Assembly: GCA_017676145.1 (NCBI GenBank)
Contig: GCA_017676145.1_3628.1
Length of the DNA stretch: 64,000 nucleotides
Source of the DNA: a phage
Reading direction: 5' to 3' (one strand)
In this document: piece by piece, positions 34,682-42,609 of the stretch
How positions within the stretch are numbered: the first letter of the stretch is position 1
How the letters are laid out: each line of letters begins with the position of its first letter
The notes under the pieces: generated by a model
What the model saw: only the letters and a program-made list of their open reading frames with translations
Told to the model about the DNA's origin: nothing
Databases searched by the model: none
Program-made: the position numbers and the translations under genes

Positions 34682-34709
34682 ATTATACACTGTAGTTTTC
34701 AGATGTCAA
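34682..34709 (-). promoter_or_regulatory. sigma70-like promoter (TTGACA-16-TATAAT)
   Basis: - strand ttgacatctgaaaactacagtgtataat. Confidence 0.5.
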
Positions 34710-34934: not shown

Positions 34935-35105
34935 TTATACCAAAATCTCCAGCCAGAAAGCACACGGGAACACTTTGATGATTGAATCTTTACCTGGTTC
35001 AGAAGTTCTTTTTCCGTAGGGTAGGTAGAAATGCCCTCCTGCAGATTCGAATATAGCTCCTTCGGTTGTATCTATCACAGCCAGAATTAAGATTTTAGTC
35101 TCCAT
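34935..35105 (-). CDS. micro-ORF (56 aa)
   Basis: ATG after acaggggaac SD downstream of promoter 35135..35163; not on track. Confidence 0.3.
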   Translation of the reverse strand: METKILILAVIDTTEGAIFESAGGHFYLPYGKRTSEPGKDSIIKVFPCAFWLEILV

Positions 35106-35134: not shown

Positions 35135-35163
35135 ACTATACCACCTCAGAAGATGGTCGTCAA
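35135..35163 (-). promoter_or_regulatory. sigma70-like promoter (TTGACG-17-TATAGT)
   Basis: - strand ttgacgaccatcttctgaggtggtatagt overlapping stop of macro-domain gene. Confidence 0.45.
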
Positions 35164-35618
35164 CACTTTTTGTACTCCACCACAATCACATCAATGTCTG
35201 TGGTGGCAAGATTAATAACGTCTTCCACGTGTTCCCACTTTAGACCACCAATACCGCATCCGATTTTAGGAATGTAGAACGGTAATGACATACCTTTGAA
35301 TACCTCGTTGACTCGCTCAAAGCCTTTCATGATTGAGAAGTATTCAGCATTGGGCCCTGGGTAGAACTGGGTATACAGGTTGATTCCATATACGACCCTG
35401 TTCTTGGCAAAATGCTCCCAACAAGAAAACATGCCCAGCTTGTCTAGATTACCATAAGCAGTTTCTTTGTCGGCTGCCAGTGCTTGAGGGAACTCACGGG
35501 CAATATCTTTCGCTATACCTGCACCCATTGTGTGAAAGCAGTTACAACCGTGGATCATGTGGCCTGACCCTTTCTTGAAAATGGAGATTAGATCTCCACC
35601 TATAGTATCAATAATCAC
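35160..35618 (-). CDS. macro domain protein (ADP-ribose binding / de-ADP-ribosylation family)
   Basis: GDLISIF...HMIHGCNCFHTMGAGIAKDI and IGCGIGG segments match the macro-domain nucleotide-binding pattern by eye; start set at in-frame GTG (V34 of track ORF), because upstream gene occupies 35608..36033; exact start uncertain. Confidence 0.65.
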   Translation of the reverse strand: MIIDTIGGDLISIFKKGSGHMIHGCNCFHTMGAGIAKDIAREFPQALAADKETAYGNLDKLGMFSCWEHFAKNRVVYGINLYTQFYPGPNAEYFSIMKGFERVNEVFKGMSLPFYIPKIGCGIGGLKWEHVEDVINLATTDIDVIVVEYKKC

Positions 35619-36033
35619 GGTATGCCAGCTCCTCTTCCGCAATTTCAAAAAACTCAGTCCAGCACTGTGGCATATTGGAGTTACCGAAGTGGCTTTCATA
35701 GTAAAGGTTCTCACCACTCGGAAGATAGAAATCTGTTACCTCGTAGAATCCACAATCGTCGCACTCACCTTCTTCAAACTTGGCCTCAACCTTGATACCG
35801 AGGAAGGTGAAAAGTTTATGGATATCTTCAGTTTCGAACTCCCAGTGAATGTTGTTTTCCGCATCGGTGTAGAACTGGATCAGCAGACCATTGTCCAGTT
35901 TACCAAAATACTCTGTGAAGTAACTTCCTTCCCAGAAATCTTTATGACAAATAATATCCATGCGTTTGCCCATAATAATGGTGTGAGCGTTTTGGGCATC
36001 ATCACGAATCAGTTTTGGCATTTCATAGGTCAT
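35608..36033 (-). CDS. hypothetical acidic protein (141 aa)
   Basis: Track ORF; ggaga SD. Confidence 0.5.
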   Translation of the reverse strand: MTYEMPKLIRDDAQNAHTIIMGKRMDIICHKDFWEGSYFTEYFGKLDNGLLIQFYTDAENNIHWEFETEDIHKLFTFLGIKVEAKFEEGECDDCGFYEVTDFYLPSGENLYYESHFGNSNMPQCWTEFFEIAEEELAYRDY

Positions 36034-36395: not shown

Positions 36396-36812
36396 TCAAC
36401 AGAAAACTTCAACAAATTCTTCCACAGTTTTAATGTCGTGGGAAAAAGGTTTACGGCTATAACGGGCAATAGCACTATCAACCATCGCCCGGTACTCCAA
36501 ATCTTCAGAATATTTCATGAAGCATTGTAGCGTCTCTGGACAGATAGCTAAATAGCTCCACCACCCCTCTTCAGATTGGTAGTCGAATCCCATACTCTCC
36601 AACCACGAAGCATATACGCCTGCACCCTCAAGCCAGTGAGTATTTTCATCCAGAAACTTGTTAATAGACATGTGAGCTTCTAAGCATTTATCCAGCTCTT
36701 TTCCGTTAACCAGCCACGCACTGACAGTGGCGCATCCAAGGTCCACAGATTGAGTTGATAGATTGTATTGGTCATAGTTCTCAGGTTTAACAATGATATC
36801 TTCTAATGTCAT
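36396..36812 (-). CDS. hypothetical acidic protein (138 aa)
   Basis: Track ORF; aaggaga SD immediately after terminator 36829..36859. Confidence 0.55.
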   Translation of the reverse strand: MTLEDIIVKPENYDQYNLSTQSVDLGCATVSAWLVNGKELDKCLEAHMSINKFLDENTHWLEGAGVYASWLESMGFDYQSEEGWWSYLAICPETLQCFMKYSEDLEYRAMVDSAIARYSRKPFSHDIKTVEEFVEVFC

Positions 36813-36828: not shown

Positions 36829-36859
36829 TACAAAAATGCCCCACCCTTTCGGGCAGGGC
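36829..36859 (-). terminator. rho-independent terminator with GAAA tetraloop (copy 1 of identical pair)
   Basis: - strand GCCCTGCCC-GAAA-GGGTGGGGC followed by ATTTTTG; identical 22-nt hairpin at 48641..48662. Confidence 0.65.
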
Positions 36860-36874
36860 TATGTCAGTTAGGTG

Positions 36875-37498
36875 CTAAAAGTATTCATAGAGGTATCCAT
36901 CGGGAGCTGGAATTTTTTCATGAATGTAGTAATCAACACATATTCCTGTTTCTCTTCTACAAGAATTGTGGGATACCCATTCTTTAAGAACGTTGCCATT
37001 CATGTCCAACCTCCTTACATTTTTACACCGTCTACCGCTGGTGCTTCTATGCAACAGAATATCCTCCGTCTGCTTGTCTTTATTTTCTCCCCAGGTCGTT
37101 AAACGGATATTATCAAAAGAGTACCCTTTGAAATCATCTATCCTGTCACAAGAGGGCTTTTTCCTTTTGTCGTATCCGCTGGCTACCCACTGGTCATACA
37201 ACTCTTTGTAACCGTTCAGGTATAGCCACTCCTTAAACTCTTTTTTGGTGTAAGTCGGAGGAGGGTGACCTCTTTGCTTGCTGTTGCACTTTTGAGCCTT
37301 GTACAACACGCGTATTACACCTTTTTCTGAAGAGTCGTGGGAAAACTGGTCAGCCTCCCTACTGGCCTTCTTACAACACTCTTTGCACTTATTAAGATGA
37401 CCGTCAGACATCTTTGGGTGTTTGTAGAACTCGGAGAGGTTTTTCACCTCTCCGCACTTGATGCACCTCTTACAATGCGTGGATTCTACTTTTGCCAT
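36875..37498 (-). CDS. Cys-rich protein with degenerate HNH-like C-terminal motif (possible free-standing homing endonuclease)
   Basis: ATG at M30 of track ORF; N-terminal CKRCIKCG...CKECC zinc ribbon; C-terminal [15 protein letters not shown] resembling HNH tail; overlaps 3' end of 37470..38741. Confidence 0.35.
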
Positions 37499-38741
37499 AT
37501 TGCAAACCCACCGGAGCGAAAGGTATGTCATCACAGAAGTCATACTGTGCTGGATTCTGATCCATTGGGTCATCTTCCGCATCATCTACAGGAGGGGCGT
37601 CTACAGTGTTTTGCTGTGGAGTGGCTTCCTGTTTGGCAGCTTGAGGTTCTTGATGCTCAGTAGTCCCCGCACCATTCTTGATCCAATCGTACAACGGTTC
37701 AGCAAGATTAGTCAAGACATCTTTTGCCTCTGCAGTAATTGCTGCTGCAAAATCATCAACTTTCGTTTTCTTGTCAATACGGCGACAAGCGTTCAATACC
37801 GCGTTACCAACACTGGCACCTACTTCATCTTCAGTCCGGTTGGTGGCTTGAGCGTACTCTTTCTTAAGCTCGATGGTGACCACGTGCAATGTTTTAGCCA
37901 CATCTAAAGGGCTGTCAATCTTAAACCCGCGATCCAGAATGATCTGCAACGCATTGATACTGTGCCCTGTCTCTACACCAATGGGGTCGTAAGAGGATTT
38001 ACGCTTACCACCAGAACCTTGTGTACCGTTCTCTGCTTTAGGCGGGTAGGCCTTGAAGCCGCTGATAATATTCCCGGTGTCTTTGTCAACAATAGCTGCA
38101 ACACGACCGCCAACCACCAGATCTTTAAGCTGCTCATCAGTGACAACCATGGCACCTTCGCCAATCTTGTGGTCATTAACAGTAACCACGTTGCCAACAA
38201 TCTGAGTCACATCGCCATAGATGCGTAAAACGTCCTGATTGGCATTCTGCTGAGGTTTCTGCTTCTGACCTTGTGATTGTGCACCTTGTTGCTGTTTTTG
38301 TTGCTGTGGAGCTGCTGGAGCCTCTCCTGCACCCAGTTTGACCATCTTAGCCAGTGAGCCTTTGTAATAGGTCTTACCGTTATGCTCATTTGCCTTTAAA
38401 GGGATATTTACGATCCATCCTGGCGTTACTGTTTCCCACTTGTCATCAATTTTAACAGAGACGGAATCTTGATGACCAGGTTTGAGCAATTTATCACCCA
38501 TGCTGATCCAAACTTCTTCACCACCTTGAAGTAGGTTATCAGAAGAATCCAGTTCAGAAATCAGTAAAGAGATGGTATGGCTGGACTCGATTTTCTTACC
38601 TTGCCACACAGTGGTTTTAATACCTGTTGTAGGATCGGCACCTTTGATAGGCTTGATGCTGACACGTTTAATCATGCCGTGAGCCAGTAAAACAGTTTCA
38701 CGCGGATTCATCGGGTTAGCGAATTGTTGAATAACGCTCAT
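37470..38741 (-). CDS. putative ssDNA-binding protein-like protein (423 aa) with Gln-rich linker and acidic DDIPF motif
   Basis: Low-complexity Q-rich linker and C-proximal acidic DFCDDIPF resembling SSB tail; aaggaga SD. Function call is tentative. Confidence 0.35.
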
Positions 38742-41952: not shown

Positions 41953-42609
41953 TCAGCTTACCGAGAAATTCTGCTCGGACATACTCTTCGGGGACCTCTT
42001 CCCTTTGTTTTTACACCTTGCGGTTTTAGGTATCCCAGTGTACCATGCCCAACTCCTCCCAGTCAAGATATTGGAAATGGTTATTTGATTAACACCGAAA
42101 AGATCTGCTATAGCTTGCTGTGACATACCTGTTTTGGAAAGCTTTAATATTTCGTCAACATCTCTCTCTTTAAGTTTTGCACAGTATGATCTTTCCCCTC
42201 TTGTTTTACAGTAATCGTAGTCCACATCTTGGGCATTTTTTGAAGGCGAGGCCCATTCAAGGTTATCAGCAGCATTGTTTAGACGATTATGGTCTTTATG
42301 ATTAATCGGCACATAATCCAGCCCTGCTGCCTTACACTCTTCTACAAGCTCTTTTGAGGGAGGCTCTAGAAAGGTCTCGGCAATTAACCTGTGAAGCAAT
42401 TCCGATCTTCCATCCACATTTACTTGAATGTAACCGCTACTGTCTACGCTACCTTTTAAAATCCTGTCAGGGACAGCTTTGAAAGTAACTTTACCTGTTT
42501 GGTTACTGTACTTTCTCAGGTAAGACAGCCTTTTAATCCTTCCTTTGCTGCTAACTTCATAGTCGGCCTCCTTGCCAACCAGTTTTCTCCATTCCTCCAT
42601 AGCAAACAT
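41953..42609 (-). CDS. free-standing HNH homing endonuclease (NUMOD4-like N-terminus, HNH core, C-terminal HTH)
   Basis: EEWRKLVGKEADYEVSSKGRIKR (NUMOD4-like), INHKDHNRLNNAADNLEW (HNH), GMSQQAIADLFGVNQITISNIL (HTH); located 12 nt downstream of DNA polymerase exon 2. Confidence 0.75.
   Translation of the reverse strand: MFAMEEWRKLVGKEADYEVSSKGRIKRLSYLRKYSNQTGKVTFKAVPDRILKGSVDSSGYIQVNVDGRSELLHRLIAETFLEPPSKELVEECKAAGLDYVPINHKDHNRLNNAADNLEWASPSKNAQDVDYDYCKTRGERSYCAKLKERDVDEILKLSKTGMSQQAIADLFGVNQITISNILTGRSWAWYTGIPKTARCKNKGKRSPKSMSEQNFSVS

Follow-up and report, generated by a model that had tools for sequence, protein, structure and literature searches.

Results

A macrodomain gene in a Vequintavirus genome

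The DNA analyzed here is a stretch of 64,000 nucleotides (nt) from a phage (GenBank assembly GCA_017676145.1, contig GCA_017676145.1_3628.1), hereafter called the window. It is part of the genome of a Vequintavirus, an rV5/FV3-like myovirus of Escherichia coli. The gene considered in this study lies on the minus strand within a leftward block of small genes (Table 1). Its product is a small single-domain macrodomain of the TARG1/DarG/SCO6735 class, named "ALC1-like" in PMC9411070, and a predicted ADP-ribosyl-hydrolase. It belongs to the family of the phage T4 protein Tk.4, also called AdfM (anti-DarT factor Macrodomain; PHROG 335; Humolli et al., bioRxiv 10.1101/2025.11.20.689424), and it probably serves to protect the phage against the DarTG2 system of its host. 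An earlier note, based on the DNA letters only, had described this open reading frame (ORF) as a macro-domain protein and a candidate counter-defence gene. The ORF exists as described: its TGA stop was found on the minus strand, and the translation contains, letter for letter, the two quoted strings GDL…HMIHGCNCFHTMGAGIAKDI and IGCGIGG.

When its first residue is written as Met, the protein does not differ from the RefSeq entry YP_007006362.1, "phosphatase [Escherichia phage FV3]", and UniRef names the identical protein "Macro domain-containing protein". Relatives carry various labels: "Macro domain protein" in slur12, "Poa1p-like family protein" in bov10K2, "putative phosphatase" in Mangalyan, and also "hypothetical protein". 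The 3-kb stretch around the gene matches 120 phage records with 80-99% identity, nearly all of them from Vequintavirinae. The gene is intact and real, and represents an ordinary case of a counter-defence family already described: the macrodomain annotation is already in public records, and the counter-defence role of the family is published.

The longest ORF that can be called mechanically at this locus encodes 185 amino acids (aa) and, from its start at GTG 35717, runs for about 110 nt inside the upstream gene. This start was rejected, as its first 33 codons fall within the upstream gene, read in a different frame, and no homologue has them. The annotators and the homology with the Tk.4 proteins of T4 and of ECD7, a T4-like Krischvirus, both favour a start at 35618. 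An internal ATG (Met21), which would give a protein of 132 aa as in phage navn, was rejected as well: it would remove the first strand and lose the conserved GD motif, which is kept in both T4 and ECD7 Tk.4. The GTG at 35618 is the annotated start in slur12, bov10K2 and Bas48, with a coding sequence (CDS) of 459 nt in each. T4 Tk.4 (MIVKYIKGD…) and ECD7 Tk.4 align in register from residue 1 of the window protein; the ECD7 gene begins with ATG ATT ATT GAT ACT (MIIDT…), its ATG standing at the position of the window GTG. This GTG is invariant across a four-phage DNA alignment. The Shine-Dalgarno-like GAGGAG is kept in three close relatives, and the Mangalyan annotation has a ribosome-binding site at the equivalent place.

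According to the earlier note, the gene overlaps the preceding ORF unless it starts at an internal GTG. Starting at GTG 35618 does shorten the overlap, but 11 nt are still shared, since the stop codon (TGA) of the upstream ORF is at 35610-35608. Annotations of slur12, bov10K2, Bas48 and Bas54 show this 11-nt overlap as well, and such an arrangement is typical of translational coupling.

At the other end of the gene, the Mangalyan CDS (L003 2628-3104) differs by a 1-nt deletion in the A-run preceding the stop (AAAAA to AAAA, around 35165-35175 in the window). The deletion shifts the frame, resulting in an annotated CDS of 477 nt. The protein collection also contains a 160-aa variant with the C-terminus …KKCWRPSSEVI. 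Judging from these predicted proteins, the C-terminal tail of the macro protein evidently tolerates change.

Table 1. Position of the macrodomain gene, its predicted active-site codons and adjacent features in the window
Feature	Position	Strand	Remarks
Macrodomain CDS, Tk.4/AdfM family (PHROG 335), stand-alone, 152 aa	35160..35618	-	GTG start, TGA 35162-35160
GTG start codon	35616..35618	-	11 nt within 3' end of upstream ORF; placed from relatives' annotation and homology
Shine-Dalgarno-like GAGGAG	35629..35634	-	10 nt 5' of the GTG; direct reading of the sequence
Asn26 codon, motif H-G-C-N-C, conserved macrodomain Asn contacting the distal ribose	35541..35543	-	Invariant in 54 members
G32-A-G-I-A36 codons, first glycine-rich (phosphate-binding) loop	35511..35525	-	G32, G34 and A36 invariant
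Gln84 codon, invariant motif N-x-Y-T-Q	35367..35369	-	Position of DarG K80, TARG1 K84, SCO6735 Q85
G120-C-G-I-G-G125 codons, second glycine-rich loop	35244..35261	-	G120 and G122 invariant, G125 nearly so
Upstream ORF, 141 aa, PHROG 8157	35608..36033	-	Overlapped by macro gene start; context only
Sigma-70-like promoter match TTGACG-17 nt-TATAGT, extended -10 TG	35135..35163	-	10/12 in consensus scan

Macrodomain fold and predicted active site

The macro fold is confirmed by three results: a Pfam match above threshold, matches of the family profile with solved macrodomains, and a confident AlphaFold2 model. When searched with hidden Markov model (HMM) profiles, the protein scores 26.0 bits with Pfam Macro (PF01661), whose gathering threshold is 22 (E 9.7e-6), with residues 22-134 aligned on profile positions 1-117 of 118. 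The family alignment used throughout this study comprises 54 homologues, down to 36% identity. A profile made from it matches BT1257, Mtb DarG, SCO6735, TARG1, Taq DarG and Poa1p with E values from 1e-14 to 1e-11. The AlphaFold2 model built from the same alignment has a mean pLDDT of 91.1 and a pTM of 0.87, and the predicted structure has the three layers (alpha/beta/alpha) of the macro fold. In a Foldseek comparison with the PDB, the best matches of this model are TARG1, the Taq and Mtb DarG macrodomains, Poa1p, BT1257 and SCO6735, with a probability of 1.00 and a TM-score of about 0.7. Among the 50 PDB matches listed, all with a probability of 1.00, 39 are macrodomain entries and the remaining 11 belong to the OSH55 series of designed serine hydrolases.

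Residues G24, N26, C27, M31, G32, G34, A36, D50, N80, Y82, T83, Q84, P117, G120 and G122 are invariant in the family alignment. N26 aligns with N23 of AdfM from phage PhiKZ, in which the N23A mutation lowers de-ADP-ribosylation (PMC13309987). The first glycine-rich loop aligns with MGAGIA in TARG1 and MGKGIA in DarG, and the second with PRIGCGLAGG in SCO6735 and BT1257 and with PRIGCGLDRL in TARG1. The motifs that contact ADP-ribose, i.e. the conserved Asn and both glycine-rich loops, can thereby be aligned with those of TARG1, DarG and SCO6735.

At the position of the catalytic lysine the family has a glutamine. Both the HMM and the MAFFT alignments place Q84 in the same column as SCO6735 Q85, DarG K80 and TARG1 K84, and Gly124 stands in the column of the TARG1 catalytic Asp125. 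The SCO6735 mutants Q85A and Q85E are inactive, and DarG K80 and TARG1 K84 have been named as the counterparts of Q85 (PMC9411070). SCO6735 is without both residues of the Lys/Asp dyad, and catalysis by an activated water has been proposed for this enzyme (PMC9411070). Because Q84 lies in the SCO6735 Q85 column and the H-x-C-N motif and the G-C-G-[IL]-[GA]-G-G loop are both present, the Tk.4-type proteins are best described, from their sequences, as Gln-type (SCO6735-like) macrodomains. This description is a small observation that we did not find in the cited literature. The glutamine at the DarG-lysine position in the T4-type family is the only point of wider mechanistic interest at this locus.

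Membership in the Tk.4 family, distribution and selection

The window protein matches PHROG 335 ("phosphatase") with an E value of 4e-59. A BLASTP alignment with T4 Tk.4 covers residues 1-150 of 152 at 39% identity (E 7e-43). The two proteins each consist of one domain, are about 152-155 aa long and align from end to end, and they have the motifs HGCNCFHTMG-x-G, NLYTQ and IG-x-GIG in common. Both genes are located in blocks of small non-essential genes. They differ in lineage, as T4 is a member of the Straboviridae whereas the window phage belongs to the Vequintavirinae, and in the upstream neighbour, which is vs in T4 and the 141-aa ORF in the window phage. On the basis of these comparisons the Vequintavirus protein is a clear member of the Tk.4 family. 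With the Tk.4 protein of ECD7 (L007 1501-1956), whose gene occupies the canonical vs–tk.4–tk locus, the window protein shares 65.6% identity. That the identity is so much higher than with T4 Tk.4 suggests gene exchange between Straboviridae and Vequintavirinae.

Homologues were found by tblastn in 2812 of the 50,697 phage records searched, mostly large myoviruses of Enterobacteria, Pseudomonas, Vibrio, Acinetobacter and Aeromonas. In Bas54, another member of the Vequintavirinae, bas54_0092 corresponds to the window gene in its length of 459 nt, its neighbours and its 11-nt overlap; from this synteny and gene length we infer that the two genes are orthologous. In HIDEN-SEQ, bas54_0092 was non-essential on strain K-12, all of its TA sites (31 of 31) having transposon insertions (bioRxiv 10.1101/2025.11.20.689424).

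The ratio of nonsynonymous to synonymous substitution rates (dN/dS) is 0.04-0.14 in the comparisons with the window copy or with Bas48 (Vequintavirus copies), which indicates that the macro gene is under purifying selection and is maintained. The two closest relatives gave a value of 0.35, based on a count of only about ten differences.

Discussion

Predicted role in counter-defence

The counter-defence role put forward in the earlier note is supported by the full-length homology with T4 Tk.4, a protein that T4 can do without unless DarTG2 is present. In a T4 transposon library propagated on E. coli expressing DarTG2, tk.4 was the single significant hit; a clean tk.4 knockout was sensitised to DarTG2, and the gene was dispensable on K-12 (bioRxiv 10.1101/2025.11.20.689424). 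The authors of that study reported that Tk.4 resembles the macrodomain of Mtb DarG, and they renamed the gene adfM (bioRxiv 10.1101/2025.11.20.689424). The DarT2 toxin is known to ADP-ribosylate thymidine in single-stranded DNA, blocking phage replication (PMC11825919). Further support comes from a distant macrodomain, gp104 of PhiKZ (PhiKZ AdfM), which in vitro strips the ADP-ribose added by DarT2 from an oligonucleotide, rescues DarT2 toxicity and is needed on DarTG2 hosts (PMC13309987). From the homology with Tk.4 and the DarTG2 phenotype of adfM, removal of DarT2-added ADP-ribose is therefore the most likely function. We consider it probable that the protein works as a stand-alone hydrolase stripping DarT2-added ADP-ribose from thymidines in single-stranded phage DNA, which would render the phage insensitive to DarTG2. 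By analogy with its homologues, the Vequintavirus copy would have the same substrate and the same role.

The following sequence of events can be proposed. The macro gene lies in a block of small, presumably non-essential genes with sigma-70-like promoter matches. Upon infection of an E. coli host carrying DarTG2, the DarT2 toxin would be released and would add ADP-ribose to thymidines of the single-stranded phage DNA, so that replication would be blocked. The phage macrodomain could then bind the ADP-ribose via Asn26 and the two glycine-rich loops and hydrolyse the ribose-thymine bond, restoring the DNA. It would act in this way as a free-standing copy of the enzymatic half of the antitoxin. 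Catalysis would probably follow the SCO6735 route, with Gln84 positioning the substrate and an activated water, and not the lysine route of DarG and TARG1.

Several points weigh against this proposal. We found no data on the DarTG2 sensitivity of Vequintavirinae in the literature, and the results published for the Bas54 library do not include DarTG2; the paper on CmdTAC makes no mention of phage macrodomains. What is known of T4 Tk.4 comes from genetics described in a preprint, and not from enzymology on a Tk.4-type protein. The identity is only 39% with T4 Tk.4 and 22% with PhiKZ AdfM, the protein tested biochemically. As the catalytic Lys of DarG is absent, the mechanism had to be borrowed from SCO6735, which is 22-26% identical to the window protein. 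Finally, this class of macrodomains is promiscuous: SCO6735 and TARG1 also act on proteins, and Poa1p on ADP-ribose-1''-phosphate, so that the window protein may have substrates besides DNA modified by DarT2, or even a different main one.

One alternative, which we consider unlikely, is that the macrodomain mainly de-ADP-ribosylates proteins or RNA and not DNA, either to undo other ADP-ribosyltransferase toxins or defences of the host or to tune the phage's own modifications. The nearest structural relatives do include TARG1, a protein Glu/Asp de-mono-ADP-ribosylase, but neither residue of the TARG1 protein-hydrolase dyad is kept in the window protein, which has Gln84 in place of Lys84 and Gly124 in place of Asp125. 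SCO6735 also acts on auto-modified PARP1 (PMC9411070). The occurrence of the family in 2812 phage records, covering many host genera, is broader than one defence system might select; however, DarTG2 is the only condition found that makes tk.4 necessary in T4. No ADP-ribosyltransferase domain was found in the 25 neighbouring ORFs scanned, the window covering only part of the genome.

It is still less probable that the protein is mainly non-catalytic, blocking DarT2 by binding to it or sequestering a molecule derived from ADP-ribose, with hydrolysis as a secondary activity. Such a role could be envisaged because the classical catalytic Lys/Asp pair is absent, and it has precedents: the phage factors AdfA and AdfB appear to bind the toxin (PMC11481870; PMC11825919), and the dead Q85A mutant of SCO6735 still inhibits DarT in vitro, more so than dead DarG or TARG1 (PMC9411070). 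Nevertheless, the ADP-ribose-contacting positions and the SCO6735-type catalytic positions are all invariant down to 36% identity, a pattern that selection for enzyme activity would produce. The C-terminal domain through which DarG binds DarT is, moreover, absent from the window protein.

A purely metabolic function, as an ADP-ribose-1''-phosphate phosphatase or an O-acetyl-ADP-ribose deacetylase (Poa1p- or YmdB-like) with no role in defence evasion, is the least probable of the three: the legacy labels of the relatives ("phosphatase", "A1pp phosphatase motif", "regulator of RNase III") are names transferred with the domain and not tested functions, we know of no pathway by which ADP-ribose-1''-phosphate, which arises as a by-product when tRNA is spliced in the eukaryotic manner, would be made during phage infection of E. 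coli, and the T4 orthologue has a specific DarTG2 phenotype, even though yeast Poa1p is a significant match in both sequence and fold, and H23-x-C-N-C-x-x-T30 matches its I-H-S-C-N-C-N-G-S, a motif that appears to cover the residues mutated in the deposited H23A and S30A structures, given an inferred offset of 3 residues between chain and native numbering.

Removal of DarT2-added ADP-ribose from phage DNA, the function that we favour, leads to a simple prediction: the macrodomain should give resistance to DNA ADP-ribosylation of the DarTG2 type and its loss should sensitise the phage. Some phages of this kind are therapy candidates. That Vequintavirinae carry a macrodomain of the Tk.4/AdfM type, like the T-even phages, in itself adds little. 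Three Vequintavirinae (Bas60-62) carry the NADAR enzyme AdfN-Bas60, which neutralises DarTG1 (PMC11825919), and the subfamily may thus, like T4, have a countermeasure against each of the two DarT types.

Neighbouring genes and local signals

Twenty-five neighbouring ORFs, located between 26.6 and 43.0 kb, were scanned with Pfam, and no ADP-ribosyltransferase, DarT or NADAR domain was found among them. Above the Pfam cut-offs, the scan gave only DUF7238, matched by a single ORF, and the NUMOD4/HNH_3 domains of an HNH homing endonuclease. The latter, at 41953-42609 (minus strand), has NUMOD4, HNH_3 and HTH domains. Another putative endonuclease is encoded by a 236-aa ORF at 36875-37585 (minus strand), which is called "endonuclease VII" or "homing endonuclease" in relatives and has no Pfam match; as called mechanically, this ORF overlaps the upstream ORF of 423 aa by about 115 nt. 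It is separated from a 138-aa ORF (36396-36812) by a strong terminator-like hairpin at 36838-36859 (minus strand), with a 9-bp stem including 7 G-C pairs followed by a T-run.

The 141-aa ORF directly upstream of the macro gene has no Pfam or NCBIfam match and belongs to PHROG 8157 (E 6e-82). It overlaps the start of the macro gene by 11 nt in every Vequintavirus record whose annotation was inspected. It is not found upstream of tk.4 in T4-like phages, where vs is present instead. Homologues of this ORF are listed, with a length of 141 aa, as "members" of the 90% protein cluster of the macrodomain, which looks like a clustering artefact.

The earlier note had also placed a promoter at 35135-35163, overlapping the stop of the macro gene. 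The site is present and its -35 hexamer lies over the stop codon, but it is a consensus match only, since the 6-kb region contains 19 promoter-like sites compared with 11.2 ± 3.4 in shuffles. The hexamers, read from 35163 to 35135, are unchanged in three relatives; this conservation is weak evidence with little power, because the relatives compared are only about 5% diverged. Such a promoter would serve the downstream 56-aa ORF (34935-35105) and not the macro gene. Two other promoter-like sites, 36399-36371 and 36184-36156, could start a transcript that includes the macro gene. A perfect sigma-70 consensus (TTGACA-16 nt-TATAAT, 12/12) is located in the same leftward block at 34682-34709 (minus strand), about 450 nt downstream of the macro gene.

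Comparison with known macrodomains

Human TARG1/OARD1 (PDB 4j5r, 4j5s) and yeast Poa1p (PDB 6lfq-6lfu) are among the top fold matches and have the ADP-ribose-binding loops in common with the window protein. The catalytic dyad of TARG1 (described in PMC9411070), Lys84/Asp125, corresponds to Gln84/Gly124, and the protein is thus not of the TARG1 type. Poa1p has the H-x-C-N-C motif, as does the window protein, but no source is known for its substrate, ADP-ribose-1''-phosphate, in a phage-infected cell. AdfB of phage ICP1 was also considered as an analogue and found not relevant, as it is reported to interact directly with DarT and so neutralise it, with no mention of a macrodomain (PMC11481870).

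The macrodomain of the DarG (DarG2) antitoxin (PDB 5m3i, 5m31, 7omu) has the same fold and is of the same class, with a Foldseek probability of 1.00 and a TM-score of about 0.73-0.75. The best NCBIfam and PADLOC matches of the window protein are DarG, with E values of 1.5e-11 and 1.9e-12, and concern the macrodomain part only: the NCBIfam model NF048014 is matched over positions 9-143 of 338 with 44.2 bits, against a cut-off of 250. The substrate of DarG, dT-ADP-ribose in single-stranded DNA, is also the substrate proposed for the window protein. However, Lys80 of DarG is replaced by Gln, and the window protein ends after the macrodomain, at 152 aa, without the C-terminal DarT-binding domain. 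Identification as a DarG antitoxin was therefore rejected: the score is below the cut-off, and the C-terminal domain, a darT neighbour among the 25 ORFs scanned and the catalytic Lys are all missing. The window protein resembles the enzymatic half of DarG, with a predicted activity to match, but it is outside the DarG family.

A stand-alone macrodomain countering DarTG2 is also known from PhiKZ, namely gp104, the chimallivirus AdfM (PMC13309987). The conserved Asn (N23 in PhiKZ AdfM, N26 in the window protein) and both glycine loops align. PhiKZ AdfM is nevertheless only 22% identical to the window protein (pairwise E 5e-5), it retains the DarG-type lysine motif F-P-T-K, and it is imported into the phage nucleus. 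Given the low identity and the different catalytic motif, orthology was rejected. In sequence comparisons, PhiKZ AdfM appears to be a separate lineage under the same name, and the Tk.4-type and PhiKZ-type AdfM proteins probably differ in their catalytic mechanism.

The best parallel for the predicted active site is SCO6735 of Streptomyces coelicolor (PDB 5e3b), with its homologue BT1257 (2fg1, 2afc). Like the window protein, these are stand-alone ALC1-like macrodomains. SCO6735 and the window protein both have Gln at the catalytic-lysine position (Q85 and Q84, respectively), a His two residues before the conserved Asn (H-V-C-N and H-G-C-N) and the G-C-G-[IL]-[GA]-G-G loop. SCO6735 cleaves thymidine-linked ADP-ribose on DNA, needs Gln85 for this, and protects against DarT (PMC9411070). 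The two proteins differ in that their identity is only 22-26%, and in that the Tk.4 family has Y-T-Q where SCO6735 has I-G-Q. SCO6735 is moreover encoded by a cellular, DNA-damage-regulated gene, whereas the window gene is a phage gene.

The invariant Gln84, the H-x-C-N motif and the G-C-G-I-G-G loop set the Tk.4 family apart from DarG and PhiKZ AdfM. Because these features group the family with SCO6735, BT1257 and Poa1p, we tentatively raise the possibility, to which we would not yet commit ourselves, that the Tk.4-type AdfM proteins descend from stand-alone Gln-type hydrolases resembling SCO6735 and BT1257, and not from DarG antitoxins taken over from DarTG2 operons as orphans, and that they use a lysine-independent, water-activated mechanism. 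If this were true, the name AdfM would cover two unrelated macrodomain lineages, a Gln-type in T4 and Vequintavirus and a Lys-type in PhiKZ. The Gln-type could then also have substrates beyond the products of DarT2, for example those of other ADP-ribosyltransferase-based defences.

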